IMG/VR virus record: IMGVR_UViG_3300042889_001061
Location: 32,001 to 96,000 of that record
From: a virus
Direction: 5' to 3' (one strand)
DNA: 64,000 nt
Shown here: piece after piece, positions 13,100 through 61,528 of the stretch
Numbering within the stretch: the first letter of the stretch is position 1
Layout: every line of letters begins with the position of its first letter
Notes under the pieces: model-generated
The model's database searches: none
The model's input: the letters and a program-made list of their open reading frames with translations, nothing else
Told to the model about the DNA's origin: nothing
Translations under genes and position numbers: made by a program

Positions 13100-13765
13100 A
13101 TGCTATTAAATCCAATTTACGAATACAAAAAACTCAATCGTGACGAAACTACAGGCAAGCGTCTTTATGCTTGCCCTGACGGAACAAAAGTTCCCAGCGT
13201 CACAACAGTGCTAGACTCGACCAAAGATAAAACATTCTTAATTGAATGGCGCAAACGTGTGGGTGATGCCGAAGCAACTCGTATTAGCACAGAGTCTGCG
13301 GGTCTGGGCACACTGATGCACACACATTTAGAATATCATGTACTAGGTAAAGAACGTCCACAAGGTAACAACCAAGTTCAGATACTGGCTCGTGACATGG
13401 CTGATACTATGATTAATCAAGCCTTCTGTGACATTGAAGAGGTATGGGGCATTGAAGCACCTTTATACTACCCCGGACTGTATGCAGGTACTAGTGATAT
13501 GATCGGAGTACATAAAGGAACTCCAGCAATCATTGACCATAAGACAACTAAAAAGCCTAAGAAGAGAGAATGGATCGAAGATTACTTTCTACAATGTTGC
13601 GCCTATGCATTGGCACATAATGAAGTACATGGTACTAATATTAAAAAATGTGTAATTAACATTATTGACCGAGATGCTAAACTACAACCATTTATCATAG
13701 AAGGCAACGAGTTTGATCACTACAGTGATCTCTGGGCTCAGCGTCTTGATCAGTATTATAAATAA
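13100..13765 (+). CDS. PD-(D/E)xK exonuclease (MGME1/phage exonuclease-like)
   Basis: PSVTTVL, GTLMH, YAGTSD, IIDHKT, YFLQCCAYA. Confidence 0.85.
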   Translation: MLLNPIYEYKKLNRDETTGKRLYACPDGTKVPSVTTVLDSTKDKTFLIEWRKRVGDAEATRISTESAGLGTLMHTHLEYHVLGKERPQGNNQVQILARDMADTMINQAFCDIEEVWGIEAPLYYPGLYAGTSDMIGVHKGTPAIIDHKTTKKPKKREWIEDYFLQCCAYALAHNEVHGTNIKKCVINIIDRDAKLQPFIIEGNEFDHYSDLWAQRLDQYYK

Positions 13766-26453: not shown

Positions 26454-27338
26454 TCAGTTCGGGGAATCGTTGATTATCTCACTACTGCAATAGTATTTGC
26501 CACCGGTGGTCAGCAAATCGCTGATTAACTGATCCAAAGGTACACTAATGAAATCTTTTCTGTAAGTATGTCTTGGACCTTGTATTACATAGTCTATATT
26601 TTCTGCACCAGACATTTTTGGAAAATATATTAAATCTTTACCCCAATATTTTCCATAATACATGCCTTTAATAAAGGAGTCCCACCAACTGATATTACGT
26701 ACTCCTTGTTTTGTGTATAGTCCATGAGCATTAATAAATGCTGTCATTATATCGTCTTTAACTGTACTTACAACAACTTCGCTGGTTTTATCAAATAATA
26801 TATATTCAGCGGTTCTGCCTAAAGTGTCTCCTGCACGTTTTCGTGACATTTCAAAAGTATGATAACCTTCATAAAAATGTGCAATACCTTTAACAAAGGT
26901 TATAAAAGGGCCGTCTCCGCCCTGCAAAAAGTTTACATCAGGTAATTGGCCGAGAAACTTACTATGAATTATTTGAAATGGCGGAATATTTAAATTTTTA
27001 CTGATGTCAAGTATTTCTTCTTTACAGGCCATGGGATCAATGTCAATGATATGTGATTTAAACTGCCAAGCACGTTCCAATTTTTTTAAATTATTAAACT
27101 CAATATCATTATAACCTGGCATATAAAGAAATGCAGTTTCAATTTTAATACCTTGATCCATAAAACTTCTCAACGCGGCTTGACTATCAACACCAGAACT
27201 AATACCTAATATAAGTTTGTCCCCCAGGGCAATTATATCTCTAGCTCGACGATTATACTCTTCTCGAAGATTGCCCACTTCCCACTGACATTGGTCGTAT
27301 TCGATGTAAAATCCTTGGCTATCTGTGTTGAATTGCAT
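26454..27338 (-). CDS. PP-loop (adenine nucleotide alpha hydrolase) family protein
   Basis: ILGISSGVDS. Confidence 0.65.
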   Translation of the reverse strand: MQFNTDSQGFYIEYDQCQWEVGNLREEYNRRARDIIALGDKLILGISSGVDSQAALRSFMDQGIKIETAFLYMPGYNDIEFNNLKKLERAWQFKSHIIDIDPMACKEEILDISKNLNIPPFQIIHSKFLGQLPDVNFLQGGDGPFITFVKGIAHFYEGYHTFEMSRKRAGDTLGRTAEYILFDKTSEVVVSTVKDDIMTAFINAHGLYTKQGVRNISWWDSFIKGMYYGKYWGKDLIYFPKMSGAENIDYVIQGPRHTYRKDFISVPLDQLISDLLTTGGKYYCSSEIINDSPN

Positions 27339-27374
27339 ATTGTATATTGCCTTAATAAATACATATTTATTACT

Positions 27375-28529
27375 ATGACAAACAAAAAATTAGGGTATTA
27401 TACATGTGCCGGTCTGGAATTTGAATCTAAAATTCAAGCATGTCTACATGCAGTCGCCACAGGTAGGGAAGTTCAATGGCATTTTAACGATGAGATTTTT
27501 TCAAAACACAATTGGAGTGTAGAGCCGGAATTAAGTCTTGATGCATTGTATAATTTAAGAAGTAAGCAGATTAGAGAAAAATACGACTATGTTGTATTAA
27601 GTTACAGCGGTGGCGCAGACAGTCATAATATCTTAATGAGCTTTATCCGCCAGGGTCTACACATAGACGAAATTGTTGTAAACAACATGGAAAAAGCCAA
27701 CCGGCAATTCACGGATCTCAATGTAAACAATACAGATCCAACTAATACTCCCGCCGAGTTTAGATTACAGGCTGTACCTAGATTAAAGGAAATCGCAGTA
27801 CTAATTCCTAGAACAAAAATCACAGTCTGTGATCTCAGTGAACACTTGTTTGACTACATGAATTCGGCCAAAGATGCCAGTTGGGTATTAGGCCGCAAGG
27901 AAGGCCTTAACGCTGCCAATGCCACTAGATATAATTATTTGGCCATGACTGAAATTAGAAAACAGTTTGATAAAAACAAGTCCATGGTCATTGTTGTGGG
28001 CGTGGACAAACCACGTTGTTTTATACGCAATGGTGATTTTTATATTAGATTTGCAGATCGTGCTGCCAACATTGTTCCAATCCCCGATCACTTGAACGAG
28101 TACACAAACAGCACGGTAGAACTATACTATTGGAGTCCGGACAGTATAGATATTTTAACTAAACAAGCACATGTTGTTCGTCGCTGGTTAAAATTTAAAC
28201 CTGAAATGCAAAAATTGTTTGACAGTGATGTAATGGCAGATCCCAAAATATTTAGAATTTACCACGAGCAACTTCTTAAAAATATTGTATATACGACATG
28301 GAATGAAAATTGGTTTCAAACAGATAAAGCAGTCAAAGACTGGACCAGTGAATTTGATCAATGGTTTGAAGATGGATACAGTGATACAAGAGCATATGGT
28401 ATTTGGCTGGAAGGCGTTAACTTCGTCAAGGACAAGCTACACACATTTGCCAATCATCGCAATGGCGATCTCGATGGCTTAAAGCTGTTTGGAAAAAACT
28501 ATAAAATAGGATCTTTTGCAGATCGTTGA
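27375..28529 (+). CDS. PP-loop (adenine nucleotide alpha hydrolase) family protein
   Basis: VLSYSGGADSHNIL, GVDKP. Confidence 0.7.
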   Translation: MTNKKLGYYTCAGLEFESKIQACLHAVATGREVQWHFNDEIFSKHNWSVEPELSLDALYNLRSKQIREKYDYVVLSYSGGADSHNILMSFIRQGLHIDEIVVNNMEKANRQFTDLNVNNTDPTNTPAEFRLQAVPRLKEIAVLIPRTKITVCDLSEHLFDYMNSAKDASWVLGRKEGLNAANATRYNYLAMTEIRKQFDKNKSMVIVVGVDKPRCFIRNGDFYIRFADRAANIVPIPDHLNEYTNSTVELYYWSPDSIDILTKQAHVVRRWLKFKPEMQKLFDSDVMADPKIFRIYHEQLLKNIVYTTWNENWFQTDKAVKDWTSEFDQWFEDGYSDTRAYGIWLEGVNFVKDKLHTFANHRNGDLDGLKLFGKNYKIGSFADR

Positions 28530-28531
28530 TT

Positions 28532-29437
28532 TTATTGTTTAATTTCTAGTTTATTGTTTTGTATAAATTTAGTCAACGCTCGATTTGATTTTAATACAGA
28601 ATTTATCATCCAGGGCTCTGTTGAGCCTATGGGCAATAAACCTGCAACAAACGTAGTATCTTTAAATTCCTTGCTGGATAATATCTTCGAAACATCTGCG
28701 ATAATTTTATTCTTATTGTCAGTTTCCATAGATTTAGAAACTACTAATGCTACATAACTTTGATATGGAAATGGTTCTTTAAAGTATTGTTCCCATGTAA
28801 GAATTTTATCTCCCATGTCATGACTGGCAAATAACACAGTGATTCGTGGATCAGTGATTATTACTTTGATGCCTGCATAGTTGCCAAACGTACAATCTAC
28901 ATTTCCAGCCAGTACGTCCAATGCACCTTTGTTGCCGCCTGCAGGATAAGGTATTGCCAAATGCTTGCCTTTGGCATGAACAAACAAAGATTCGGATGCA
29001 ATATGTTCGGAGCTGCCATAACCGTTAATGGCAAAACTCAATGATTTTGTTGTTGATAAAAAGTCGTCAAACGTTTTGATTCCTAGTTTTGAATTACATA
29101 TTAATAAATTTGGAAGAACAGCAACGACTGCTAATATTTCCAAGTCTGTGTCTGGATTGTATTCCAAATCTTTAAACATCATTGGATTGGTTACATATAT
29201 TTGTGGTACAGTGGCCATTAAAACACTGTTGCCTTGTAAGACATGTTTGACTGCGATTCTGCCGGCACCACCAGGACGATTTTGCACAATATAGCCAGCA
29301 GACGCTGGTAAGTTTTTTGTGATCAATCTGGCAATTCTATCGCTGGGTCCACCCGGAGCATGATGAACAGTGAATTCTACAGCATGAGCCGAAATGCATA
29401 TACACATTCCCAAAAGTATTTTTTTAAGTTTATTCAT
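28532..29437 (-). CDS. Bug/TctC tripartite tricarboxylate transporter substrate-binding protein
   Basis: Signal peptide, PGGPSDRIAR, VQNRPGGAGRIA, GYGSSEH, IPYPAGG. Confidence 0.88.
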   Translation of the reverse strand: MNKLKKILLGMCICISAHAVEFTVHHAPGGPSDRIARLITKNLPASAGYIVQNRPGGAGRIAVKHVLQGNSVLMATVPQIYVTNPMMFKDLEYNPDTDLEILAVVAVLPNLLICNSKLGIKTFDDFLSTTKSLSFAINGYGSSEHIASESLFVHAKGKHLAIPYPAGGNKGALDVLAGNVDCTFGNYAGIKVIITDPRITVLFASHDMGDKILTWEQYFKEPFPYQSYVALVVSKSMETDNKNKIIADVSKILSSKEFKDTTFVAGLLPIGSTEPWMINSVLKSNRALTKFIQNNKLEIKQ

Positions 29438-29538
29438 AGAATAATATTTAGTTCTTGCTTATTGTTATTTTGGCTATGCACTCTTAAAGTGCTGGTGAAA
29501 TTGTAATCTAAGATTAACTAACTTGTAATCTAACTCAC

Positions 29539-29567
29539 TAGACAAAAAAATTGAAATTAGTTATACT
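29539..29567 (+). promoter_or_regulatory. Sigma70-type promoter of LuxR gene
   Basis: TAGACA-17-TATACT. Confidence 0.6.
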
Positions 29568-29678
29568 TACTATAACTATAAGATACACTGAAGTACTAGT
29601 ACTACAGAGTATTAGTATTAAGAAGTATAGACTACATTAAGTATTAACATAGCAGACCTAACAACGAAAAAACTTTAT

Positions 29679-30803
29679 ATGAAAACAGCAGACAATGTAA
29701 AAAAGACAATTTTATTTTATCAGCCAGATAGATATACTCGGCATGCAGATAGCATCGTGGCAGATGCATATCTCGAAGAACACATTCTTTGTAATTTTTT
29801 AATTGCACTTACCTGGGATGATTTTGTCAGTAAATTAAACTTAAACCCTGACTTAGTGGGTTTTCACTGTGATTTATTTGACAACGAAGAATTAAGTATT
29901 CATCAATTAATAAAAGCAATAGAAATAACTCTCAAGCTAAAAAATAACCAAGCAGATATTTTTGTAAAAGTTAATAAAAAAACTTGTCGAGAAACTATTG
30001 ATATGTTGAGAAACACAAACATCATAGGTCTGCAATTTGATCGGGGAGACTTTGGTTTAGAATATGCCACAGAATCCTTTCGAAAATTACTAACAGATAG
30101 ACATCATTGGCCTGAAGAAGTTATTGCTACATCGTTAGAACATCAAGAAAATAAACGACCTTTGCACGTTTATTTTAGAGATGATATGGAGGTATATTAT
30201 GACCCAGTAAGATTTGTAGAAGTAACAAAAGATATTAATGCTAGATTTCTAATGTGTAAAAGTTTGAATGAGTTAAGTATAGCATTATCCGAGCGTCCTA
30301 AGAATCTTGTATTTCATATAGACATGGTTAGACGGCATGGCGGAACAATATCAGAGTTTATGATGATGTTAGAAACTATGACGAAATACACTAATACAAA
30401 AATTAAACCTAACATCGGTGTTGGTATAGAAGCAGATACACATTTATCGACAATTAAAGAATTACAAAAACACAGAATACTGGCAATAGTACCAAGTGCA
30501 AAAACATTTGGCACAACTAGTACTCGCAGTGCCATAGAAGTAATGCTGAATAATGAATCGCATTGGCCCAAAGACATTATCAGTACTCTTCCTGGCAATG
30601 AAAACAAAGTAAAAAATAAAAATAATAATGCCCTAACAATTAGACAACAAGAAGTATTTGATCTAATTGCTAAACGAGGTCTAAGCAACAAGCAAATCGC
30701 CAGAGTGCTAAATATATCTGAGAGCACAGTTAAGATTCATGTCAGCGCAGTCATGAAGAACCTTTGTGTTAGAAATAGAACACAATTGGCCTTAACGAAA
30801 TAA
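29679..30803 (+). CDS. LuxR/NarL-family regulator with two tandem degenerate receiver-like domains
   Basis: C-terminal LTIRQQEVFDLIAKRGLSNKQIARVLNISESTVKIHVSAVMKNL..RNRTQ; internal duplication (LVGFHCD..HWPEEVI / LVFHID..HWPKDII). Confidence 0.88.
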   Translation: MKTADNVKKTILFYQPDRYTRHADSIVADAYLEEHILCNFLIALTWDDFVSKLNLNPDLVGFHCDLFDNEELSIHQLIKAIEITLKLKNNQADIFVKVNKKTCRETIDMLRNTNIIGLQFDRGDFGLEYATESFRKLLTDRHHWPEEVIATSLEHQENKRPLHVYFRDDMEVYYDPVRFVEVTKDINARFLMCKSLNELSIALSERPKNLVFHIDMVRRHGGTISEFMMMLETMTKYTNTKIKPNIGVGIEADTHLSTIKELQKHRILAIVPSAKTFGTTSTRSAIEVMLNNESHWPKDIISTLPGNENKVKNKNNNALTIRQQEVFDLIAKRGLSNKQIARVLNISESTVKIHVSAVMKNLCVRNRTQLALTK

Positions 30804-30991
30804 TTAACAGCGTATATATCCGTATCCAAAACATCTTCTAATACTGAAGCCAATCTAATACTAAGTCATAGCACAACTTAGTATATTTCCTTTTAAGTAA
30901 TTTAGTAGCAAGCTAGAAATAGATTTTTAGTTTGCACAAACACTAGGGCGTAATAACAGTCCTAGTATTATTTACTTTAAGGAAAAATAAT

Positions 30992-31546
30992 ATGGCTGAC
31001 ATGTTAACAACAGATCCCTTCTTCGCACTTACAAATCAAGTAGCTGGCGTAAGAGAGAAAGTTTCCGATAGCATTTTCGAAAACTACAAACTACAAGTTG
31101 CTCAAACCAACGACATCAACAACCGTGCTATGCAAGTTGCATTACACGATGCTACTGAACTATCTACTATCAAGCAAGAAATTGCTAATGGCACGCTTCA
31201 GACTATGTTGGCTGCTAGTCGTACAGACGCACAGATCGGTGCCACAAGTGCTGCTCAACAACGTTTGATCATGGAACAAGCAGAAGCTACACGTCGTTTA
31301 ATCGTCGACTTGAACACACAAAACTTGAACACAGCGTTGATCAACACAAACACAGCATTGACTGGTTTGGGTGTATCATACGGTGGTTTAGGTCTTGCAT
31401 ATGGTGGCGCAGTGAGTGCTTACCAAAGTGCTAACTCTACATCAGCAATCAATGCATTGAACAGCGCAATCGCTAGTCAAGGTATGGTTACTGTAGGTGC
31501 TGGCGCAGTAGGCGGTACACAAACTGCTACACCAACAAGCGTTTAA
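30992..31546 (+). CDS. Ala/Gln/Thr-rich helical protein with Gly-rich tail
   Basis: Strong SD; tail GAGAVGGTQTATPT shared with 31818 ORF. Confidence 0.7.
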   Translation: MADMLTTDPFFALTNQVAGVREKVSDSIFENYKLQVAQTNDINNRAMQVALHDATELSTIKQEIANGTLQTMLAASRTDAQIGATSAAQQRLIMEQAEATRRLIVDLNTQNLNTALINTNTALTGLGVSYGGLGLAYGGAVSAYQSANSTSAINALNSAIASQGMVTVGAGAVGGTQTATPTSV

Positions 31547-31565
31547 TCGCTAAAGGAGGCCTACT

Positions 31566-31751
31566 ATGTATCCATACTTAGGCGGATATGGTAGAGGCTT
31601 GGGGGGATTCCCTCGAGGCTATCTAGGAGCTGGCATAGGATATCCCTATCAAGGCTTCTGGGGCTACCCAGGTTGTGGTTGGGGCTACCCAGGTTATGGC
31701 ATTGGCTGCTACGGCGGTTATGGCTATGGTTATGGCGGCGGCTTACTATAA
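31566..31751 (+). CDS. Gly/Tyr-rich small protein (spore-coat-like composition)
   Basis: AGGAGG SD; GYPG/GYG repeats. Confidence 0.7.
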   Translation: MYPYLGGYGRGLGGFPRGYLGAGIGYPYQGFWGYPGCGWGYPGYGIGCYGGYGYGYGGGLL

Positions 31752-31767
31752 TCTAAAATAGTAAAGT

Positions 31768-31801
31768 AAGTAGGTTGGCTCATAAGGCTGACCTACTTTT
31801 T
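31768..31801 (+). terminator. Terminator/attenuator hairpin inside island
   Basis: aagtaggttggc/gctgacctactt plus T run. Confidence 0.65.
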
Positions 31802-31817
31802 AATAAAGGAGATTGTT

Positions 31818-32027
31818 ATGTACGGTTATTTGTACCCATTTTATAGAAGTCCATATATTGGAGGTTACGGAGGTTACGGCTATGGCTATCCATACAACTA
31901 TGGTGGCTATTACAACAATAATGTTAGTAATGTTATAGGTAGCGCAGTTGCTAACCAATCAATGAATACTATTGGCGCCGGAGCCATAGGTGGCATTCAA
32001 GTTGCTACACCTACTGTAATTTGGTAA
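31818..32027 (+). CDS. Gly/Tyr-rich small protein
   Basis: AGGAG SD; YGGYG repeats; tail GAGAIGGIQVATPT. Confidence 0.7.
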   Translation: MYGYLYPFYRSPYIGGYGGYGYGYPYNYGGYYNNNVSNVIGSAVANQSMNTIGAGAIGGIQVATPTVIW

Positions 32028-32039
32028 AAGGAATTTAAG

Positions 32040-32780
32040 ATGTATATCAGAAGCACTACACCAAAGCCAACTCCATTACCAGAAAAAGAAAAGTTGTGGA
32101 TTACAGTTGACCCAGATCAACCCAATGGTGATTGTGAACCTCTGCCGCCCGTTGAATTAAAAAATAAAATAGGCGCAACCGATCCATTACCAAGTGTAGT
32201 AATAAATGAAGCTACTATGACATTTAGAATGAATAGTAGAACATTATGGACAAAATACGCATTAGGTCTAGTTAATTTTGCTGTCAGTGATGTTGCCGAC
32301 TTACCCACAACAGACAGTGTAGAACAACGTATGTATAAATCATCTACACTGATAGGTGATTTCTTTGTTCCTTATTATGGTATTCGTGCAGGCAGTGATA
32401 TTGCAAAATTGCTAACTGAGATATTTAAAAATGGTGTTGATGTAGTTGCCGCAGTTAAAAAACAACAAGACACGGTTCCATATCAAATTAAATGGGCAGA
32501 ACAAACAAAAGAACTTGCTGAATTGTTTAATAAATTAAACCCAAGTCAATACCCAACTTCATTATTACAAGAAATGTTAGATGCTTTAACTAAGTTATGG
32601 TTAGATAACATCATTGCTAGATATACTAACAATATTATTCTTAATGCTGAAAGTATAGATGGCATTAACAAATTAGTTATCACTGGTATTGCTAATCACG
32701 TTAACAAAGGTTATCAGAGTTTAGCAGATGTGTTAAGTCGTGGAGTTATTGCTCAATATCCATTATCATTTTTGGAATAA
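32040..32780 (+). CDS. Helical-bundle protein resembling the Firmicutes 'LW..H..W...PYYG...NP...GI..QFP' family
   Basis: RTLW, PYYG, W.....LA..F..LNP, LADVLSRGVIAQYP; paralog at 36428. Confidence 0.55.
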   Translation: MYIRSTTPKPTPLPEKEKLWITVDPDQPNGDCEPLPPVELKNKIGATDPLPSVVINEATMTFRMNSRTLWTKYALGLVNFAVSDVADLPTTDSVEQRMYKSSTLIGDFFVPYYGIRAGSDIAKLLTEIFKNGVDVVAAVKKQQDTVPYQIKWAEQTKELAELFNKLNPSQYPTSLLQEMLDALTKLWLDNIIARYTNNIILNAESIDGINKLVITGIANHVNKGYQSLADVLSRGVIAQYPLSFLE

Positions 32781-32783
32781 GAA

Positions 32784-33023
32784 ATGGCGATAATAAACGT
32801 TCAGTCTAACAAGAATATTGAGTTTTTAGACTTAGAAGTTCACGCTGTCATGTGTGAACAACGACGTCTTGCACTAGAAGAAAAAATTAATTCAGTTGCA
32901 CTTCGTATCAACGATTATGAACAGCAACAACTAGCAAACAAAAGATTAATGCTAGGTGCAATAGTTTCTATTGCTACGGGCATTATCACAACAATAGTGT
33001 CTTTAGTAGGGAGGAATTTTTAA
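32784..33023 (+). CDS. Coiled-coil plus C-terminal TM small protein
   Basis: LEVHAVMCEQR; hydrophobic tail. Confidence 0.6.
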   Translation: MAIINVQSNKNIEFLDLEVHAVMCEQRRLALEEKINSVALRINDYEQQQLANKRLMLGAIVSIATGIITTIVSLVGRNF

Positions 33024-33024
33024 A

Positions 33025-33642
33025 ATGAATCAACTTGAAATAAACAGACAACGAGCACAATTATTAACAACAGCAAGAAATATGCTCAATGAAGAATATC
33101 AACGACAACGCAGTGAGCAATATACTAAGTGGCAAAGCGAATCAAATCACCTATGGATATCAAAAGGTATAATGTTGCCATATCCTAGTTCTTTTGGTTA
33201 TCCCACTGAAGAAGAAGTTGTTGCAAAAGCATTAGAATTATATAACACACAAAATAATAAACCAGTATCAAACACTGGTGTCGAATTACCTAAAACAGAT
33301 GAATCAATGACTTCATCTGTGACAGCAAAACTAATGGAAGTTAGTCACAATGTTCGACCGGTTGTAATGCCAGAAGTACCTGATGTAACACCTTGGGAAC
33401 AATACTTGGTGCCTGAACCAATTAAACAACCAGTACCGATTGTAGAAGAACCTGTAATAGAAGATGTTGTTGCCAAGGAACCCGAACTAATCGTAGAAGA
33501 GGAAGTAGCAGAACCTGAACTAACAGAAGAACAAATAGAAGAAGTAAAAAGTAATTCTAGATTAAGAGGGTTACTGGCACAATTTATTACCATGGCTAAA
33601 GGGCTTGATGCCAAAGCCCAAAAAGATGAAGGAACAAAATAA
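33025..33642 (+). CDS. Hypothetical protein, N-terminal domain paralogous to 38802 ORF, Glu/Pro-rich linker
   Basis: R.QLL..AR.ML...W...[11 protein letters not shown]. Confidence 0.65.
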
Positions 33643-34142
33643 TGTTTAATAATTTATTATTCAATAGAAGACCATTAAGAAGAGTTATTCGTCGTCCAGT
33701 ATATAGACGTCCTATAATTAATCAGTATGGCGGCAATGGCAGTGATATATTTTATAACAGCGGTGGAGGAGTTGGACCACCAGGGCCACCAGGGCCACCA
33801 GGGCCACCAGGACCACCAGGGCCACCAGGGCCACCAGGGCCTCCGGGCACACCAGGATTAGTGCCAGTAACCGTAGTAAACACAAGTCCTTATATTGCTT
33901 TACCCACTGATTATGATCTTGCTGTTACTGCTAACGCAGTTATACCTGCCAGCATAGTGTTACCAGCAAGTCCTGTTGGAACTGTTTTTATTGTAAAAGA
34001 CGCCGCAGGAGTGGCAAATATAAATTCAATCACAGTATCTGCCATAGCATCGACTATTGACGGAGCAGCCAGTGCTGTTATCGATGCTCCATATGGTAGT
34101 TTACAATTTATATTCAACGGCATAGAATGGAACATAGTATAA
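33642..34142 (+). CDS. Collagen-like protein with basic N-terminus and C-terminal beta domain
   Basis: (GPP)8-GTP; Arg-rich leader; IVKDAAG...IDG...PYGSL..FNGIEW domain. Confidence 0.85.
33774..33854 (+). repeat. 9-bp tandem repeat encoding collagen triplets
   Basis: gg(a/g)ccacca x7 plus two variants. Confidence 0.9.
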
Positions 34143-34693
34143 TGGCATACAAAGCACCACTTGCTTCAACAACCGATTTTGGAATTATGAAAGTCGGCAC
34201 CGGTTTATCAGTTACTGATGGAACCGTTAACGCATCAACCGGCTTACTCAATTATGGATTTTTTGAAAACGGAACACAAACTAATCCAGTGGCCAGTGCA
34301 ATTAATTTAGCATCATTTAGTATAACTGGTCCAGCAAATGGAATTAGTATAGTTGGTGGTACTCAACTTACAGTAGTCAACGCTGGAACATACAACACGG
34401 TGTTTACAATGAATGTAAACAAAACATCCGGTGGCGCCAGCACTATTAGCATATGGCTACGTCTAAATGGAGCAGACATTGCAGGCTCAGCACAAGATTT
34501 AATTTTAACAGGAGCATTGGATACAATCTTCGTTACAGGCAATTATACATTGGATATACCTGCAGGAGGCAATATAGAAATATGCTGGAGTAGTGCTGAC
34601 ACTACCATGCAGTTATTGGCATTGCCAGCAAGAGTTGGTCCAGTGCGTCCAAGCGGCGCCAGTGTAAAAGTTACACTAACAAGAATTAGTTAA
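34142..34693 (+). CDS. BclA C-terminal/C1q-like beta-sandwich protein
   Basis: GIS......LTV..AGTY..VF..N...IWLRLNG.DI.GS...ASV..TRI pattern. Confidence 0.55.
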   Translation: MAYKAPLASTTDFGIMKVGTGLSVTDGTVNASTGLLNYGFFENGTQTNPVASAINLASFSITGPANGISIVGGTQLTVVNAGTYNTVFTMNVNKTSGGASTISIWLRLNGADIAGSAQDLILTGALDTIFVTGNYTLDIPAGGNIEICWSSADTTMQLLALPARVGPVRPSGASVKVTLTRIS

Positions 34694-34702
34694 GGAAATA
34701 AT

Positions 34703-35062
34703 ATGTCTGCAAATTTAAACACAAAAATAGTTACAACAACACCTTACACCGTGTTATCATCAGATGAAGTAATTTTTATGAATGTCCTTGGACCATCGTC
34801 TGTTATATTGCCAGCCAATGGCCTGGCCACAGGTGAAGATTGTTGCGGCGATGATGATGACGACTACAACGGCAAAAAAAAGCCAGTGCTAAAGCGTTCA
34901 TATTACATCAAAGATATTTCAGGTAACTCGGCAGCGAACCCAGTTACTATTACATCAGCAGGATCCAAGTCCATTGACAGCAATCCATTTGCAATCATCA
35001 ATGGCGGATATGGTCATATACAGGTAGTGTATGACGGTACAAACTGGAAGATTATAGGATAA
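34703..35062 (+). CDS. Beta-domain protein, paralog of 33642 C-terminus and 35103
   Basis: PYTV..SDEVI..LPA...IKD.SG....P.TI...ID...GYG....YDGTNW. Confidence 0.7.
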   Translation: MSANLNTKIVTTTPYTVLSSDEVIFMNVLGPSSVILPANGLATGEDCCGDDDDDYNGKKKPVLKRSYYIKDISGNSAANPVTITSAGSKSIDSNPFAIINGGYGHIQVVYDGTNWKIIG

Positions 35063-35102
35063 TCATTCCAATTAAAATTAGTTAATATAAAGGAAAACTA
35101 AA

Positions 35103-35507
35103 ATGTCATATACAAATAACCCAACGTCGATACTTGCCGGAGCAGGTATTACAGTATCACCAACAACAGGTACAGGTGCAAATACAATTACTCTTAGTGC
35201 CAGTGGTATTAATCCTGTGGCAGTTAGAGTTGCAGTTGCAACTCCAGTCGTGGCCAGTGCAACCACAGATGAAGTAATCAGCGTACAAGTTCCTGGTCCA
35301 GTTGCTGTGGCAGTTACATTGCCAGCAGGTGTTGCCGGTAAAGTATTCACAATCAAAGACGGACTAGGATTGGCTGCACCAGCAACACCTATTACTATTA
35401 CACCAACAGTCCCTGACACAGTAGATGGCGCCGCCACTGCTACAATTGATGCACCATTTGGTTCATTGACATTGGTCTTTGATGGCGCACAGTGGATACT
35501 AGTATAA
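35103..35507 (+). CDS. Beta-domain protein, paralog of 34703
   Basis: DEVISV...LPAG..GKVFTIKDGLG...ITI...VDG...PFGSLTLVFDGAQW. Confidence 0.7.
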   Translation: MSYTNNPTSILAGAGITVSPTTGTGANTITLSASGINPVAVRVAVATPVVASATTDEVISVQVPGPVAVAVTLPAGVAGKVFTIKDGLGLAAPATPITITPTVPDTVDGAATATIDAPFGSLTLVFDGAQWILV

Positions 35508-35508
35508 T

Positions 35509-35787
35509 ATGTACAAAAGAATCACTCATACGATTGTCGAGGAACATTTCGACCATCCTGAGGCAGTAGCAATGGCAGCCGAATCTAAATCTAAAGGTAA
35601 AGCCCCATTGCGCTATTATGCTGACGGCCAACAGATAGCATCTGATTTACCGCAGTCTTATCAATTAGCAGTAGGAGAAAATCGCTGTGGCAATTGTCTA
35701 GCATTTGACCCAACTAGAAACGTTTGTAAGCAATGGATGTTACCTGTGCGAGCAGACTATGTTTGTGCCGCATGGACAGTAATTTAA
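35509..35787 (+). CDS. Small protein with shared leader and HiPIP-like Cys motif
   Basis: MYKRITHTIVEEHFDHP leader; CGNC...C...W....V.ADYVC.AW. Confidence 0.6.
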   Translation: MYKRITHTIVEEHFDHPEAVAMAAESKSKGKAPLRYYADGQQIASDLPQSYQLAVGENRCGNCLAFDPTRNVCKQWMLPVRADYVCAAWTVI

Positions 35788-35799
35788 AAGGATAATAAA

Positions 35800-36417
35800 A
35801 TGGGAATTATAAGAAGACCTGAGCCACTTAAAGTCAAACTAGAAGATGTAGATACTCCTGTGGAAAACGAAGTAGTATGTATAGTCGAAGAAAGCGATGA
35901 TGGTAACATTATTGAAATAATATGTGTACCAGAAGAATTTCTCGAAAAAGTCAAACCAGTAGAAGAAGTTCGAGCAGAATTTAAACCCAAGGCTGTGGTA
36001 ACTTCTACTGCCACTGGGGAACAGTTCGGAACTTGGATTCCCGTTTTGCGTAGTACAGGCACAATTGATGTTAACATTAGAAATGCTTTTTATACAAAAG
36101 TTGGACAGTTAGTAACCTGTACATTTGATATAATAGTTACTAACATGTCTGAACGAAATAATTCTTCTATAACGCTGAATGGACTGCCAATTAACAGTAT
36201 AAATTCTCAGGGAATAGCAGGATCTGCTCATTTATCTTATTTTAAAACGCCAACCAATGAATTAACTCATATAAGTGGCACAATAAACGGCAACGATACT
36301 AGAATAGATTTGTGGTGTGAACGACATGGTCGCAAAGGACTATTACCGTTAACTCAACAGGATATTCAAATCAACACAGTTCTAGCAGGAACTGTAACTT
36401 ATATTACAAATTCTTAA
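35800..36417 (+). CDS. Protein with acidic N-terminus and fiber-tip-like beta domain
   Basis: GTWIPVL...YTKVGQLV...LNGLP resembles phage fiber C-terminal domains. Confidence 0.55.
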   Translation: MGIIRRPEPLKVKLEDVDTPVENEVVCIVEESDDGNIIEIICVPEEFLEKVKPVEEVRAEFKPKAVVTSTATGEQFGTWIPVLRSTGTIDVNIRNAFYTKVGQLVTCTFDIIVTNMSERNNSSITLNGLPINSINSQGIAGSAHLSYFKTPTNELTHISGTINGNDTRIDLWCERHGRKGLLPLTQQDIQINTVLAGTVTYITNS

Positions 36418-36427
36418 GGAGAATATT

Positions 36428-37120
36428 ATGTACAAAAAAATTACGCACAACATAGTCGAAGAGCACTTTGACCATCCCGTAGCCAGTCAGATTAAGAAAT
36501 CTATGACTAGATCTAAAATTCCTAATAATGAAGTTTTTTCAGAAATCAAATTTAGATCAGATATAAACTCATATTTCGAAAACTATAAATCACGAATTAA
36601 TTCTATGATCAACAGTGCAACTGGCACTGAAGAAGATTTAATTAAACCATTTGAAGAAATATTCAACAACTCTTGGGTTGATGGTCTTGGCAACATGACC
36701 AAGCCCATATACTTCAGCGAATTAGGTGAAAGAATTAATTCTGCTTTTAGAAGTTTTCCTGTGACTTTATTAATAATGATACAACTCTTAAAAACTGGAA
36801 GAGATATAACTGCGTCAACTCGTAGATTTGTAGGTGCCAGGGATGACTTGTCAATAGCATTAAATAATTTTAATCCGGCTTGGCAAAATACAGCAATAAG
36901 CTCGTTGTTTACGACCATTACAACTGAAATGATAAATCAAGTTAAAGCTCGATTGAAAAAAGATTCCAATGCTGAATTACAATCTGCACAACAAATTGCT
37001 CAAGCATTCGAAACATTTGAAAATGCATTTGTAAATGGAATAATCAGTCAACATCCAGAAAGATTTTCTATATCAACTCCTGTGATTGCTCCAACTTCTT
37101 ATAATAGAGATATAATGTAG
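36428..37120 (+). CDS. Helical-bundle protein with shared leader; paralog of 32040
   Basis: MYKKITHNIVEEHFDHP leader; L..FNP.W, GIISQHPERF. Confidence 0.6.
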   Translation: MYKKITHNIVEEHFDHPVASQIKKSMTRSKIPNNEVFSEIKFRSDINSYFENYKSRINSMINSATGTEEDLIKPFEEIFNNSWVDGLGNMTKPIYFSELGERINSAFRSFPVTLLIMIQLLKTGRDITASTRRFVGARDDLSIALNNFNPAWQNTAISSLFTTITTEMINQVKARLKKDSNAELQSAQQIAQAFETFENAFVNGIISQHPERFSISTPVIAPTSYNRDIM

Positions 37121-37128
37121 ATTATAAA

Positions 37129-37875
37129 ATGTATGCCAAAGATTTTAGAGTAAGAGCTGACCCCGCAGACCGGCGAGATCGTTATTATAATTTTGCCAGA
37201 ATAGAACAGCCCAGGAACTATGTCGATCTTCGACCCTGGGCTAGTCCTGTGGAAGATCAATTACATCTAGGAAGTTGTGTTGGACAAGCAGTTGTAGGCG
37301 CCTATGAATTATTATTAAACAAGTCGGATAGAACCAAGTTTACGGACCTAAGTAGATTATTTGTGTATTACAATGCACGTTTGTTGGATAATTCAATAGA
37401 CGAAGACGTGGGTGCTTATGTTCGAGATGGAATTAAAGCTGTAAACAAATACGGAGTTTGCAGTGAACAGTCGTGGCCATACTTAATAAAACGATTTACA
37501 GATGCTCCTAGTGTTCAAAGCTACGAAGATGCTCGTCGTAGATTGATAAAAAAATATTATAGAATAGAAAGTATAAAAGATATAGTCGATGCACTAAACG
37601 CAGACTGCCCTGTGGTCACTAGTTTTAATGTCTATAACAGCTTTGATGATTTAGAATATTCAGGCAATCACGTATTGCCAATGCCACAAGCCAGCGAAAA
37701 CTTAATTGGTGGTCATGCTGTTACTTTTGTAGGCTATGATTTATCAAAGAAATTGTTTTTAGCAAGAAATAGTTTCGGTACAGATTGGGGTATGGACGGA
37801 TACTTTTGGGTACCCTTTGACTATGCAGAAAAAGACTTTATGGATAGCTGGGTATTTGACATCGAACTAATTTAG
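37129..37875 (+). CDS. Papain-family (C1A) cysteine protease
   Basis: VDLR, DQLHLGSC, SRLFVYYNAR, GGHAV..VGY, RNSFGTDWG..GYFW. Confidence 0.92.
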   Translation: MYAKDFRVRADPADRRDRYYNFARIEQPRNYVDLRPWASPVEDQLHLGSCVGQAVVGAYELLLNKSDRTKFTDLSRLFVYYNARLLDNSIDEDVGAYVRDGIKAVNKYGVCSEQSWPYLIKRFTDAPSVQSYEDARRRLIKKYYRIESIKDIVDALNADCPVVTSFNVYNSFDDLEYSGNHVLPMPQASENLIGGHAVTFVGYDLSKKLFLARNSFGTDWGMDGYFWVPFDYAEKDFMDSWVFDIELI

Positions 37876-37959
37876 GGTCTTGTTACCAGTTTTTCTTTCA
37901 GGTACATAAAAATAGCGATCGAACTAGAACAGCTAGATAAAATACATACGGTTAGTTAC

Positions 37960-38093
37960 GAGTCGCAGGACTATATAATAAGTTACAGACAATAAATAGT
38001 TTATACATTACATACATAGAGAGAAAATTATGAGCATAAACAGTTATGAAATTTGTCTTGAACTATTCAAGATGTCAAAAGAAACACTAGTAA
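37960..38093 (+). pseudogene. Degenerate duplicate of promoter and 5' end of the 38802 gene
   Basis: Near-identical to 38736-38865; MSINSYEICLELFKMSKETLV vs MSTNGYEIRLELLKMSKEML. Confidence 0.8.
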
Positions 38094-38801: not shown

Positions 38802-39062
38802 ATGAGCACAAATGGCTATGAAATTCGTCTTGAACTACTCAAGATGTCAAAAGAAATGCTAGAGCAAGACTGGCATGCAAATCGCGAGACGCTTCAGCGT
38901 CAATGGGAACAAGAGGTTAATCTGGTCCAGATCCGAGCACAAGCGTCCGATCAACCAGTTGAATCGATTCCTACACAACCAACCTTCCGACCTTTTCCTA
39001 CAGAAGAAGAGATCATCAAGAAGGCCAAGGTCTTAAACGAGTTTGTTGCCCAACGAGCATAA
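38802..39062 (+). CDS. Conserved phage hypothetical protein
   Basis: YEIRLELLKM..FPTEEEII.KA..L..FV. Confidence 0.7.
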   Translation: MSTNGYEIRLELLKMSKEMLEQDWHANRETLQRQWEQEVNLVQIRAQASDQPVESIPTQPTFRPFPTEEEIIKKAKVLNEFVAQRA

Positions 39063-39184: not shown

Positions 39185-39445
39185 ATGAACGTTACTACAA
39201 AATCAGGCAAGTTGCTAGAAGCATTGCAATCTGGTGAGAAGTTGACAGCCAAGCAGATCTCTGCTCGCTTTGGTATTAAAAACCCAACAGCAACCGTAAG
39301 CGATCTACGCTTCAGCGGTTATGCAATTTATGCTAATCAGCATAAAGATACTAATGGTCGTCAGACCACTAAGTATCGCTTGGGCAATCCAAGCCGCCGT
39401 ATTGTAGCCGCAGGCTACCGTGCTATGGCAGGTGGCCTAGTCTAA
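39185..39445 (+). CDS. Winged-helix DNA-binding protein
   Basis: LTAKQISARFGIKNPTATVSDLR..GY.I. Confidence 0.75.
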   Translation: MNVTTKSGKLLEALQSGEKLTAKQISARFGIKNPTATVSDLRFSGYAIYANQHKDTNGRQTTKYRLGNPSRRIVAAGYRAMAGGLV

Positions 39446-49301: not shown

Positions 49302-49475
49302 ATGGCAGGCAAAGCAAAATCAATCTATCTCACAATACTGCCCAAGGGTCAGCATATGAGTGTTTTTAAGAAAGTATTCTTTGAAGCCAAGTCTTACAAT
49401 GAATACATCAAGTCAGAAGAGTTCAAAGCCAAGTGGCCCGCAGACCAATTTGACATTGTTAAAGAAACCTATTAA
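49302..49475 (+). CDS. Small hypothetical protein (not in ORF track)
   Basis: AGGAG SD; MAGKAKSIYLTILPKG...KETY*. Confidence 0.65.
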   Translation: MAGKAKSIYLTILPKGQHMSVFKKVFFEAKSYNEYIKSEEFKAKWPADQFDIVKETY

Positions 49476-49536
49476 TTGACACAAATTGGTTTCGGCGTTA
49501 TAATACATACATAGTTTAACAAAACAGGAGTTTGAA

Positions 49537-50001
49537 ATGGGAACACGTAGTCGTATTGGTGTTATGCATGGTGAAATCTGCAAGTCAGTATACTGTCACT
49601 GGGATGGTTATTTGGAACACAATGGTGCCATCCTACAAGAACACTATGACAGCGCCAAGGCCAATAACCTAGTGGCACTGGGTGACTTGTCAAGTCTCAA
49701 AGCCACGATTGGCGAGAAGCACGCCTTTAGCCAGTTTGAGTTGCGGGCTGAAGAAGTTGCGGGCTACAAACTGTTGACTGAGAATATGTGTACATTCTAC
49801 GGTCGCGACCGCGGTGAAGAAGGTGTAGAGTTTAAGTCAGACATGACCTTTGCAGACTTCTTGGATCGTGTGGACAACTGTGGTGCAGAGTATTACTATA
49901 TCATGCGTGATGGTGTATGGTATACAGGTTGCCCTGGTAAAGGTTCCAAGTTGGTGCCTTTGGCAGAAGCATTGGCCGCAGTCAAAGAGACAGTAGAATG
50001 A
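49537..50001 (+). CDS. Conserved phage early protein (YCHWDGY motif)
   Basis: MGTRSRIG...SVYCHWDGY; promoter and SD. Confidence 0.7.
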   Translation: MGTRSRIGVMHGEICKSVYCHWDGYLEHNGAILQEHYDSAKANNLVALGDLSSLKATIGEKHAFSQFELRAEEVAGYKLLTENMCTFYGRDRGEEGVEFKSDMTFADFLDRVDNCGAEYYYIMRDGVWYTGCPGKGSKLVPLAEALAAVKETVE

Positions 50002-60990: not shown

Positions 60991-61209
60991 ATGATTACCA
61001 GCACAGAATACAGTATGTTCACAGATCAAGGCAATCTTGCCGTTGCGGCCTTGGTCAACTATGCCCGAGTGGCAGGCCTTACTTGGCCCGAAACTTGTCG
61101 TTGTTTGGAATCTCTGTCCAGAAATGATGCTTACGGAGAAGCCATGGATACAGCGGTACGAGAATGTGTCTATAGTGCTCTTGGATTTGAGTCAAATTTT
61201 TATTGCTAA
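60991..61209 (+). CDS. Early hypothetical protein
   Basis: Promoter cassette; YSMFT..GN.AV...EA.DTAVRE. Confidence 0.65.
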   Translation: MITSTEYSMFTDQGNLAVAALVNYARVAGLTWPETCRCLESLSRNDAYGEAMDTAVRECVYSALGFESNFYC

Positions 61210-61264
61210 ATTGACTGAAATTGGTTTTGGTGTTATAATTAATACTTAGCAACAAGGAGATGGT

Positions 61265-61528
61265 ATGAAAGAAATCAAAATTAAAGTATTCGGTGATTCA
61301 GGTCATGCGTGGGCCCGCTTCCCAAAAGCTCGCTTGGTCAAACTTGGCATCGCTGATAAGATCACTCCCTACAGTTATCAAAATGGTGTGAATGCCTTTT
61401 TGGAAGAAGACTGTGACTTGTCAACACTAATTAACACTTTGCAGGCCAAAGGCTTTAAGGTCAAGTTCGAAGAAAGTTTTACCAATAAGTCCAGCAAGAT
61501 TCGCGGCTATTGCAGTTACCAGGCTTAA
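61265..61528 (+). CDS. Early hypothetical protein (DxGHxW...LEEDCD motif)
   Basis: Promoter cassette. Confidence 0.65.
   Translation: MKEIKIKVFGDSGHAWARFPKARLVKLGIADKITPYSYQNGVNAFLEEDCDLSTLINTLQAKGFKVKFEESFTNKSSKIRGYCSYQA

Follow-up and report, generated by a model that had tools for sequence, protein, structure and literature searches.

The window, the 64,000-nt stretch of DNA analyzed here, comes from a giant freshwater (jumbo) phage and carries a cassette of 15 genes (29679-37875) whose products, in this genome, are not under the late promoter. The new result of our analysis is this regulation: the cassette is headed either by a LuxR-family regulator gene with its own promoter architecture, as in the window, or, in many LuxR-less relatives, by a T4-type late promoter. 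Conserved gene order, mobility as a unit, this conserved promoter architecture, and tags common to the proteins support a single coherent, separately regulated assembly unit, as the first-pass annotation had proposed. From sequence comparison, we see about an even chance that the cassette encodes an accessory virion fiber or "hair," a late-class function placed here under the control of a LuxR activator.

Gene content and distribution

All 15 ORFs lie on the + strand with short gaps or none, and AAGGA/AGGAG-type ribosome sites precede nearly all of them (Table 1), in agreement with the first-pass description of one co-oriented block of about 15 genes with strong SDs. The genes named in that description could be identified: the LuxR-family regulator at the start of the block is g1, with a match to the GerE/LuxR HTH; the Ala/Gln helical protein is g2 (rich in Ala, Gln, and Asn); the two paralogous helical-bundle proteins are, by alignment, g5 and g14; the (GPP)8 collagen is, by sequence, g8; the three paralogous beta domains are the C-terminal part of g8, g10, and g11 (BLASTP E 2e-8 to 3e-18); the Cys4 mini-protein is g12; and the papain protease is g15 (Peptidase_C1), with intact catalytic residues. 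Two Gly/Tyr-rich mini-proteins are indeed present (g3 and g4), but they had been placed before the Ala/Gln protein, and the real order is g2 then g3 and g4. The contig carrying the window is 111 kb long and 32% complete.

Table 1. Coordinates of the cassette features in the window.
Feature	Position	Strand	Basis or detail
Sigma-70-like promoter TAGACA-N17-TATACT	29539..29567	+	Consensus scan; ~140 nt upstream of LuxR gene
Six TA(G/A)TACT boxes, LuxR leader	29592..29652	.	Candidate autoregulatory operator
g1, LuxR/GerE-HTH regulator, two tandem pseudo-receiver domains	29679..30803	+	PF00196, 57.8 bits, E 8e-16
Operon promoter region	30839..30901	+	Tandem TAATACT boxes at 30839, 30856; -10-like TTAAGTAAT at 30893
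5'-UTR hairpin CTAGG-N13-CCTAG	30942..30966	+	Fold z-score -2.45; just before g2 ribosome site
g2, coiled-coil rod protein	30992..31546	+	Gly-rich tail ending GxGAxGGTQTATPTSV
g3, Gly/Tyr-rich peptide, 61 aa	31566..31751	+	Sequence; homologs found in relatives
Terminator-like hairpin after g3	31768..31803	+	13-bp stem and U run; -18.4 kcal/mol, z = -3.0
g4, Tyr/Gly-rich peptide, 69 aa	31818..32027	+	C-terminal 30 aa homologous to g2 tail
g5, helical bundle, g14 paralog	32040..32780	+	Alignments; N-terminal leader replaced here
g6, coiled-coil protein, 79 aa, C-terminal transmembrane helix	32784..33023	+	Sequence
g7, conserved N-terminal domain, then acidic Pro/Glu-rich linker	33025..33642	+	Sequence
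g8, Arg-rich N-terminus, (GPP)8 collagen stalk, XD1-type beta domain	33642..34142	+	Sequence
g9, short fiber-shaft motif and C1q-like knob	34127..34693	+	Nearest named Atlas cluster C1q (PF00386), score 0.94
g10, XD1-type beta-domain protein, acidic Cys/Asp insert	34703..35062	+	Paralogy; XD1 profile match
g11, XD1-type beta-domain protein, well conserved	35103..35507	+	73% identical to L015 homolog
g12, leader MYKRITHTIVEEHFDHP and Cys4 domain, HiPIP-like spacing	35509..35787	+	Leader in common with g14, E 3e-9
g13, acidic linker and beta knob	35800..36417	+	Homologs begin with tail-fiber motif TTSLGVVKIG...DGxISA
g14, leader MYKKITHNIVEEHFDHP and 7-helix bundle	36428..37120	+	AF2 pLDDT 87, pTM 0.76
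g15, papain-family (C1) cysteine protease	37129..37875	+	Pfam PF00112, 57.9 bits, E 2e-15

The synteny search suggested by the first-pass annotation found the genes linked and their order kept in 66 non-redundant loci of uncultured jumbo phages, between different flanking genes; the carriers are myoviruses with T4-like core genes. Since dozens of divergent contigs show this gene order, the clustering is not due to chance, and the cassette moves between flanks as a unit, from LuxR to protease. The conserved core consists of the rod protein, the Tyr-rich peptides with its C-terminal motif, and the collagen protein with an XD1-like domain, and many versions lack the g15-type protease. In one locus, L036, the whole interior of the cassette is deleted, so either the cassette is dispensable or this contig is defective. 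This loss counts against a fiber, as does the absence of the cassette from cultured phages.

The LuxR regulator and its promoters

A LuxR gene lies upstream of the rod gene in 38 of the 66 loci, and none of these 38 has TATAAATA, the exact T4-type late promoter, at that place. Among the 28 LuxR-less loci, 13 carry it no more than 320 nt before the g2-family gene (Fisher p = 1.8e-6). The genome of the window itself has TATAAATA 34 nt before the tail sheath gene. Only two copies occur in the window (at 13757 and 24154) and none in the cassette, in line with the first-pass remark that TAAATA late promoters were not to be spotted there.

Upstream of the LuxR gene, TATAAATA was found in 0 of 48 upstream regions from relatives, many of which have a sigma-70-like T(T/A)GACA-N17-TA(C/T)A(A/C)T about 135 to 165 nt before the LuxR start. 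The TA(G/A)TACT cluster in the LuxR leader is the densest for this motif across the 111-kb contig, and at least two such boxes precede LuxR in 25 of the 48 relatives. Before the operon, most LuxR-bearing relatives have two boxes 17-18 bp apart followed by TAAGTAAT or TAACTAAT, as in the window. We infer from these patterns that g1 binds the boxes.

Atypical NarL/FixJ regulators of the CsgD type switch on fiber operons, such as curli csgBAC, and FimZ does so for fimbriae. Like them, g1 combines a LuxR HTH with a degenerate receiver and sits directly upstream of the operon that it would activate; its NCBIfam alignments to ErdR, NarL, and CsgD extend from the receiver end into the HTH, and the phospho-acceptor Asp shows no conservation among 33 homologs. 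Unlike them, g1 is phage-encoded, has two tandem pseudo-receivers, scores far below the family cut-offs, and has only putative target boxes. Virion parts do not usually have a regulator of their own, which is a point against the fiber reading.

Proteins of the cassette

The most conserved gene of the cassette encodes the rod protein g2, predicted by AF2 to form one helix over residues 9-161. Its homologs number 757, many with 80-96% identity, and the Atlas clusters nearest to it have 94-100% viral members; identity to L015 is 77%, compared to 54% for the terminase. Neither g2 nor the wider g2 family, which is defined by the C-terminal 130 aa, was found in cultured phages. The long predicted single helix and the strong conservation of g2 beside variable distal partners recall T4 fibritin (wac) whiskers and other coiled-coil phage fibers. 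In contrast to fibritin, to which it has no sequence similarity, g2 lacks a foldon-type C-terminal domain; its end is a Gly-rich tail that has an invariant Gln and a motif common to the Tyr-rich peptides. The g4 C-terminus matches that of g2 by BLASTP (E 2e-12), and 29 g4 homologs in the relatives' loci share a conserved MFSGYYYPYYRS N-terminus and an NxxGSAxxNQ...QxATPTVIW C-terminus. The stretch downstream of g2-family genes shows a 15-fold enrichment of Tyr-rich mini-ORFs (72 inside versus 7 outside). Relatives retain the stem of the 5'-UTR hairpin, one pair being altered in L015 (CCGGG/CCTGG), and the hairpin after g3 is probably an attenuator.

The g2-family gene is followed by a collagen-bearing module ORF in 53 of the 66 loci and by an XD1 domain in 56 of them, and the g8 collagen stalk itself reaches 22 bits against Pfam Collagen, below the cut-off. 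A profile of the beta domains (A2) matches T4 gp10 residues 73-137 (E 9e-5) and CBA120 TSP4-N (E 2e-3). PHROG searches gave weak matches to tail-fiber and baseplate proteins, among them g10 to a baseplate protein (PHROG 20556), and the tail-fiber motif of the g13 homologs also opens other module proteins. The g9 domain forms the C-terminal knob of phage fiber proteins of 700-1800 aa, is encoded in the tail module of L012, a small phage, and in P0132 and P0136 comes right after collagen runs. The first-pass annotation had called g9 BclA-C/C1q-like: the C1q likeness stands as a lead, from the nearest named Atlas cluster and one homolog annotated with a C1q-like fold, and no relationship to BclA was found. 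The XD1 and C1q assignments are weak profile or feature matches rather than folds, and this too weighs against the fiber reading. In L002, g9 to g11 are 94-96% identical while neighboring genes are 27-46% identical, a pattern typical of receptor-binding loci.

With T4 gp10-gp11-gp12, CBA120 TSP1-4, and G7C gp66/gp63.1, the cassette has in common several small trimeric-type XD1-like proteins (PMC8825819). XD domains of the T4 gp10 and CBA120 type trimerize, and partner trimers are docked by XD2 and XD3, not XD1 (PMC8825819). As in these branched receptor-binding complexes, exchangeable knob proteins adjoin, and in the cassette locus distal parts are swapped mosaically. The cassette differs in that XD1 stands alone or after a collagen stalk instead of within a long tailspike, in having no enzymatic tailspike body, and in adding a rod, Tyr-rich peptides, leader-tagged bundles, a protease, and its own regulator.

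Two module-specific tags, an N-terminal leader and the C-terminal motif, recur among the cassette proteins. The g5 homologs in most relatives begin with MYKKITHxIVEEHF. The g14 bundle has no significant relative in the PDB, and in BFVD it matches homologs from uncultured phages and one Bodo saltans virus protein, and nothing else. No Pfam match was found for g12, whose four Cys and WCxxW motif are kept in 11 homologs. The architecture of g6 is common to 31 homologs. The N-domain of g7 is paralogous to an ORF at 38802-39062, and L065 has a fusion of this N-domain and linker to a knob of the g13 type. Residues Q44, C50, H196, and N214 of g15 are invariant in 19 homologs, and the protein has neither a signal peptide nor a long propeptide. 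Some components would not be expected in a fiber and argue against that reading: the conserved tail-anchored membrane protein g6, the HiPIP-like protein, the 7-helix bundles, and the protease.

The fiber reading and its alternatives

The XD1 matches, the g9 knob in fiber proteins and in a tail module, and the LuxR-less versions behind TATAAATA indicate that the products are related to tail-fiber parts. The first-pass annotation had named ordinary tail-fiber parts expressed with late genes as one case that would overturn its own reading; the kinship to tail fibers was found, and the late promoter is missing here and the parts are not ordinary.

One alternative, which we consider unlikely, is that the rod, Tyr-rich peptides, and collagen proteins polymerize in the cytoplasm into a coat or matrix around virions for persistence, perhaps with Tyr cross-links, the knobs forming an outer nap and the protease maturing or opening the layer. 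The conservation of Tyr-rich peptides, collagen stalk, C1q-like head, and cysteine protease as a unit would suit such a layer, as would the probable overproduction of rod and first peptide owing to the attenuator, the common tags, which suggest co-assembly of many different proteins, and the basic g8 N-terminus, which could pair with the acidic linkers of g7 and g13. However, no shell-forming or basal-layer protein was recognized among the cassette proteins, all parts with recognizable relatives point to fiber or baseplate proteins, many versions do without the protease, and no homology to Bacillus coat or exosporium proteins was found in Pfam or NCBIfam.

An improbable alternative is a set of effectors or a structure that is not part of the virion and is made inside or on the infected cell, for example a polymer of the cytoskeletal or R-body-like kind, a complex at the membrane, or a device acting at lysis, with LuxR setting the timing. 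Its use of a regulator of its own behind a sigma-70-type instead of a late promoter, the conserved membrane protein g6 with its faint similarity to XhlA (below cut-off), the apparent dispensability of the cassette, and g15, which its invariant catalytic residues suggest is active and to which the N-terminal portion of an annotated endolysin is related, would all fit. Set against this are the late promoter of LuxR-less versions, the dominance of fiber-type domains, the lack of export signals, and the lack of any Pfam match at E<=0.1.

It is very unlikely that the leader MYKKITHxIVEE directs its carriers to the capsid in T4 style and that the prohead protease cuts it after I-x-E, in which case g12, g14, and the g5 homologs would be injected internal head proteins and only neighboring genes would encode fibers. 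T4 internal proteins carry an L/I-x-E cleavage motif, which I-V-E-E in the leader resembles. As in T4, the leader is short (~12-17 aa), conserved, and attached to unrelated domains; it is better conserved than its carrier proteins, and AF2 models that of g14 with low confidence as largely unstructured and separate from the bundle. But T4 internal proteins are scattered, whereas the leader proteins always accompany fiber-like genes and, in the 111-kb contig of the window and five relatives of 100-140 kb, the EEHF motif occurs almost exclusively in the cassette.

The spore-coat or cyst reading of the first-pass annotation is not supported, given the fiber and baseplate likenesses, the late promoter of LuxR-less versions, and the absence of export signals; translations of the cassette proteins contain no signal peptide, leaving a cyst-like shell on the infected cell without support. 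The Bacillus exosporium nap consists of BclA, a collagen-like glycoprotein with a C1q-like head, and the coat contains Tyr-rich proteins. The cassette resembles it in the collagen stalk followed by a C1q-like head in P0132 and P0136, and in uniting Tyr-rich small proteins, N-terminal targeting tags, and a cysteine protease in one gene set. It is, however, unrelated in sequence to BclA, ExsY/CotY, CotC, and YabG, the host of the phage is probably Gram-negative, a sporulation context is absent, and the collagen protein of the window ends in an XD1 domain, not a C1q-like one.

Under the fiber reading, the product would be an accessory fibrous appendage of the virion (short knob-tipped fibers, "hairs," or a branched fiber set), assembled in the cytoplasm as a late-class function. 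The rod g2 would form a coiled-coil shaft of roughly 20 nm, made in excess. Because the Tyr/Gly-rich peptides share its terminal tail motif, they may assemble together with the rod or bind to a partner common to both. Trimeric adaptors comparable to the XD domains of T4 gp10 and CBA120 TSP4 would be supplied by g8, with its collagen stalk and XD1 domain, and by the small XD1 proteins g10 and g11, with g9 and g13 as exchangeable distal knobs. The 17-aa leader of g12, g14, and most g5 homologs may be a module-specific targeting tag, and the C1 protease a maturation or accessory enzyme, frequent yet dispensable.

In this genome, g1 would be expressed from the sigma-70-type promoter, bind the boxes in its own leader, and, from the tandem TA(G/A)TACT boxes, activate a -35-less promoter before g2. 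Attenuation of transcription after g3 would yield more rod and first peptide than downstream products. The g1 circuit would thus take the place of the TATAAATA late promoter that drives the operon in LuxR-less relatives.

Distribution and order of the cassette

The cassette exists as a coherent unit and is widespread. All 15 ORFs of the co-oriented block proposed in the first-pass annotation (g1 to g15) were found, tightly packed and with strong ribosome sites, and the linkage it had proposed between LuxR, Gly/Tyr-rich, collagen and C1A protease genes held up in a synteny search, in which the gene order recurred across related loci. One detail of the proposed order was wrong: the Ala/Gln rod gene g2 precedes, rather than follows, the two Gly/Tyr peptides g3 and g4. 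Searches with g9, g5 and g2 yielded 64 related loci, and a profile of distant g2 relatives yielded 62 further loci; a single-sequence search with the homologous protein P0172 found no matching locus, and the alignment-based search was the productive one.

Among close relatives, where identity is typically 30-50%, the order is LuxR, g2 (1-2 copies), a Tyr/Gly peptide, helical proteins tagged with a 17-aa N-terminal leader, g6 and g7, followed by the collagen-XD1 protein, knobs and XD1 paralogs, g14 and the protease. The flanks differ between genomes, with the terminase adjoining the cassette in two relatives (L015 and L016) and a TctC-like gene adjoining it in the window, so the cassette behaves as a unit whose ends are LuxR and the protease. 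The g2-family gene is followed by a putative XD1 domain in 56 of 66 non-redundant loci and by a collagen-bearing module ORF in 53. Tyr-rich mini-ORFs are present in 51 of these loci and are 15 times denser within the cassette than elsewhere (72 inside, 7 outside). A compact version on a 258-kb contig (L076) consists of a g2-like rod, a collagen-XD1 protein, a protease and a pair of Tyr-rich peptides, of which one bears the C-terminal tail motif. Judged by this gene content, the core of the cassette is the rod, the Tyr-rich peptide and the collagen-XD1 protein; LuxR, the protease, knobs, leader proteins and g6 are often present as well.

The pairing of LuxR and protease holds in the close set (both in 18 loci, LuxR only in 2, protease only in 0) but fails in the distant set (7, 11 and 9, respectively), and we therefore rejected a general link in favor of a lineage-specific one. 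The protease also occurs alone, having no linked cassette in phages FLC9, XacN1 and Alicyclobacillus phage MMB025. One relative (L036) is a natural deletion of the entire cassette interior, from the first Tyr/Gly peptide to the protease C-terminus, leaving LuxR and g2 intact and a 74-aa ORF in which a Gly/Tyr peptide is fused in frame to the last ~30 protease residues; the cassette is thus seemingly dispensable. In another relative (L002), g9, g10 and g11 are 94-96% identical to those of the window whereas LuxR, g14 and the protease are just 27-46% identical, which indicates recent exchange of distal genes between divergent phages. Such exchange resembles the behavior of a receptor-binding locus.

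No match to the island was found in a nucleotide search against cultured phages, nor any cultured-phage protein match to g2 or a distant g2-family member. A candidate link through another homologous protein, P0184, matched only the repeat region of APSE DUF1640/tail-fiber genes and was too weak for use.

The 111-kb contig itself is 32% complete according to CheckV, implying a whole genome of about 330 kb, and encodes a tail sheath, large terminase, gp32-type SSB and helicases; its sheath shares 45% identity with the sheaths of Pseudomonas phage PA5oct and Sinorhizobium phage Phosso. Immediately before the cassette lies a gene for a TctC/Bug-family periplasmic solute-binding protein (Pfam PF03401, E 4e-13) with a signal-peptide-like N-terminus, possibly an auxiliary metabolic gene and one that hints at a betaproteobacterial host. 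Together with a g9 relative in a Limnohabitans phage, this gene makes Limnohabitans, Polynucleobacter or similar betaproteobacteria of fresh water the probable hosts. Beyond the TctC-like gene, two divergent genes each carry a PP-loop-like motif (SGGxDS / SSGVDS), and neither matches a PHROG family. Just downstream of the cassette are two 86-aa ORFs, one a paralog of the g7 N-terminal domain (by all-against-all BLASTP) and the other a winged-helix protein (Pfam HTH_39); in the relative L031, homologs of both (80-85% identity) occupy the position immediately before g2 that LuxR otherwise takes.

Features of the window and of related loci (window coordinates unless stated)
Feature	Position	Strand	Remark
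First divergent PP-loop-motif gene	26454-27338	-	
Second divergent PP-loop-motif gene	27291-28529	+	
TctC/Bug-family gene	28532-29437	-	
Sigma-70-like promoter of g1	29539-29567		TAGACA-N17-TATACT
Six TA(G/A)TACT boxes in LuxR leader	29592-29646		Densest motif cluster of the whole 111-kb contig
Cassette, g1-g15	29679-37875	+	
Tandem TA(G/A)TACT boxes ahead of g2	30839, 30856		Motif positions
Paralog of g7 N-terminal domain	38802-39062		86 aa
Winged-helix protein	39185-39445		86 aa
Early promoter cassette, two examples	49475-49537, 61209-61265		
Third TA(G/A)TACT cluster	68700 (contig 100700-100715)		Past window end, outside cassette
Peptide-protease fusion ORF of L036	L036 3213-3437		74 aa
Genes downstream of the L065 cassette	L065 14557-17569		Include epimerase and methyltransferase

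Proteins encoded by the cassette

The most conserved cassette gene is g2, at 77% identity to its L015 homolog compared with 54% for the terminase. Public data contain 757 homologs of it, and viral members make up 94-100% of the Atlas clusters nearest to it. One helix is predicted over residues 9-161, followed by a disordered Gly-rich tail, a predicted shape typical of an oligomeric coiled-coil rod. To our knowledge, there is no published description or study of any of the core families (rod protein, Tyr-rich peptides and 7-helix bundles).

The three beta domains proposed to be paralogous (g10, g11 and the C-terminal portion of g8) are so by all-against-all BLASTP. A profile built from 17 such paralogs finds residues 73-137 of T4 gp10 (E 9e-5) and residues 99-169 of CBA120 TSP4-N (E 2e-3), and the domains also have weak PHROG baseplate and fiber matches. 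The XD domains of these two proteins are trimeric and XD2 and XD3 dock partner trimers, whereas XD1, the domain matched by the cassette profile, does not dock partners in this way (PMC8825819). The proposed (GPP)8 collagen is present in g8 as nine uninterrupted Gly-X-Y triplets at residues 45-71, eight of them GPP and the last GTP; because the run is short, its score against Pfam Collagen (22 bits) falls under the 27.2 cut-off.

The suggestion that g9 is a BclA-C/C1q-like protein fared less clearly: an Atlas feature search placed it with a C1q cluster at 0.94 (182 shared features) and one homolog carries a C1q-like annotation, which gives a lead only, while Pfam and PDB profiles returned no match. 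Elsewhere the g9 domain forms the C-terminal knob of 700-1800 aa phage-contig proteins, in two of which it directly follows collagen runs, and in a small phage it lies beside a tail-fiber-assembly-like gene and a tape-measure-like gene. A tail-fiber motif (...TTSLGVVKIG...DGxISA) begins the homologs of the beta knob g13 and several other module proteins, and a LuxR-less, late-promoter cassette (L065) encodes a fusion of the g7 N-domain plus acidic linker with a g13 knob. Among the genes directly after that cassette are those for a nucleotide-sugar epimerase and a methyltransferase, which raises the possibility that fibers are glycosylated in some lineages.

The two helical-bundle proteins g5 and g14 are paralogous, as had been proposed. 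A model of g14 is a 7-helix bundle (pLDDT 87) with a low-confidence, mostly unstructured leader; against the PDB it retrieved only generic helical bundles (Foldseek E at least 0.27, VIA Z at most 10), and an idea that it is di-iron or ferritin-like was dropped for want of a conserved ExxH motif. Apart from uncultured-phage homologs, its sole viral structural match is a 209-aa Bodo saltans virus protein labeled 'glycosyl transferase' (TM 0.68-0.74, rmsd 1.9 over 173 columns, 13% identity). The four-Cys pattern of the mini-protein g12 is conserved, with HiPIP-like spacing (CxxC...C...WCxxW) and a conserved WCxxW motif, and has no Pfam match at E<=0.5. The likeness of g6 to XhlA, the PBSX lysis-associated membrane protein, is confined to the architecture of a coiled coil followed by a C-terminal membrane helix (18.1 bits, cut-off 34.7). 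The papain assignment of g15 is secure (PF00112, Peptidase_C1, 57.9 bits, cut-off 20.7), with catalytic Q44, C50, H196 and N214 invariant across 19 distinct homologs.

Regulator and promoters

The LuxR-family assignment of g1 was borne out by PF00196 (LuxR/GerE HTH, residues 318-371, 57.8 bits, cut-off 23.5), whose HTH is near-invariant across 33 homologs. We dropped the idea of a phosphorylatable response regulator: g1 has no Response_reg match in Pfam and the phospho-acceptor Asp position at the end of beta-3 is not conserved among the 33 homologs, so the receiver-like domain is a pseudo-receiver and g1 would count as an atypical, CsgD-like regulator.

The contig has six exact copies of the T4-type late promoter TATAAATA, all on the coding strand and four of them 29-98 nt ahead of a gene, the sheath gene being one such case. 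In agreement with the first-pass annotation, which had spotted no late promoter in the island, TATAAATA is absent from 29400-38000. It is also absent from all 48 distinct LuxR upstream regions, many of which have a sigma-70-like promoter about 135-165 nt upstream of the LuxR start. Early genes of the contig have near-consensus TTGACA-N17-TATAAT promoters, and near-identical copies of an early promoter cassette, TTGACAcaaattggtttc..gtTATAATacatacat, precede many small genes contig-wide.

In LuxR-bearing relatives, the LuxR gene (mostly with its own terminator) is followed by a pair of TA(G/A)TACT boxes at a spacing of 17-18 bp, a -10-like TAAGTAAT/TAACTAAT about 38 bp past the boxes, a conserved leader hairpin and the g2 ribosome site. 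The cluster of such boxes outside the cassette may be another site at which the LuxR protein acts. Of 28 LuxR-less cassettes, 13 have exact TATAAATA in the 320 nt preceding the g2-family gene, versus 0 of 38 with LuxR (Fisher p = 1.8e-6); the motif occurs on the same strand only 11 times in 675 kb of close loci, five of them at the pre-g2 position. A sigma-54 promoter ahead of g2 (TGGCA/TTGCA strings) was rejected on spacing.

From this promoter distribution, the ancestral promoter type of the cassette appears to be late. The operon would then be a late-class function that in some lineages was rewired to a LuxR-type activator, itself expressed from an early or middle-type promoter. Within the operon, a 13-bp hairpin with a U run 3' of g3 (z = -3.0) should reduce how strongly the genes beyond it are expressed.

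What the cassette may build

The recognizable parts of the cassette resemble phage fiber and adaptor parts; together with the late ancestral promoter, they favor an accessory virion fiber or 'hair' system, a reading we hold with about as much belief as doubt. A virion coat or matrix seems unlikely. The first-pass annotation had compared the products to Bacillus spore coat and exosporium layers, which the cassette resembles in composition and architecture only: none of the 15 proteins matches a coat or exosporium family in Pfam/NCBIfam. We give similarly little credence to a non-virion structure; export signals were found in none of the 15 proteins, so assembly should be cytoplasmic. Least probable is that the leader proteins are packaged cargo.

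All-against-all BLASTP identified the 17-aa leader as common to g12 and g14 and the tail motif as common to g2 and g4. In our contig and five contigs of 100-140 kb, the leader motif EEHF is confined to the cassette, bar two hits (about the chance number). L030 has the leader but no protease, and L063-L065 have the tail motif but no protease, so neither tag depends on the protease.

A more elaborate scheme, which we consider speculative and improbable as a whole, is a switchable virion 'dress': g1, independent of the late sigma factor, would decide whether or not new virions acquire a polymeric wrapping or decoration, made up of the new coiled-coil family together with Tyr-rich peptides and collagen stalks, so that one genome would give two particle forms, naked versus coated or hairy. 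The leader and C-terminal motif would form a general address system loading unrelated proteins, an Fe-S-like one included.

If extra fibers are made, as in the favored accessory-fiber reading, the cassette is a candidate host-range or adhesion determinant exchanged among phages, in a clade of jumbo phages whose abundance in lakes is reflected in the number of g2 homologs alone. Being portable, the N-terminal leader and C-terminal motif could be handles for protein display on phage particles. The neat mutual exclusion of LuxR activator and late promoter ahead of one operon provides a natural experiment on how the timing of phage genes is rewired, and makes the g1 target directly testable.
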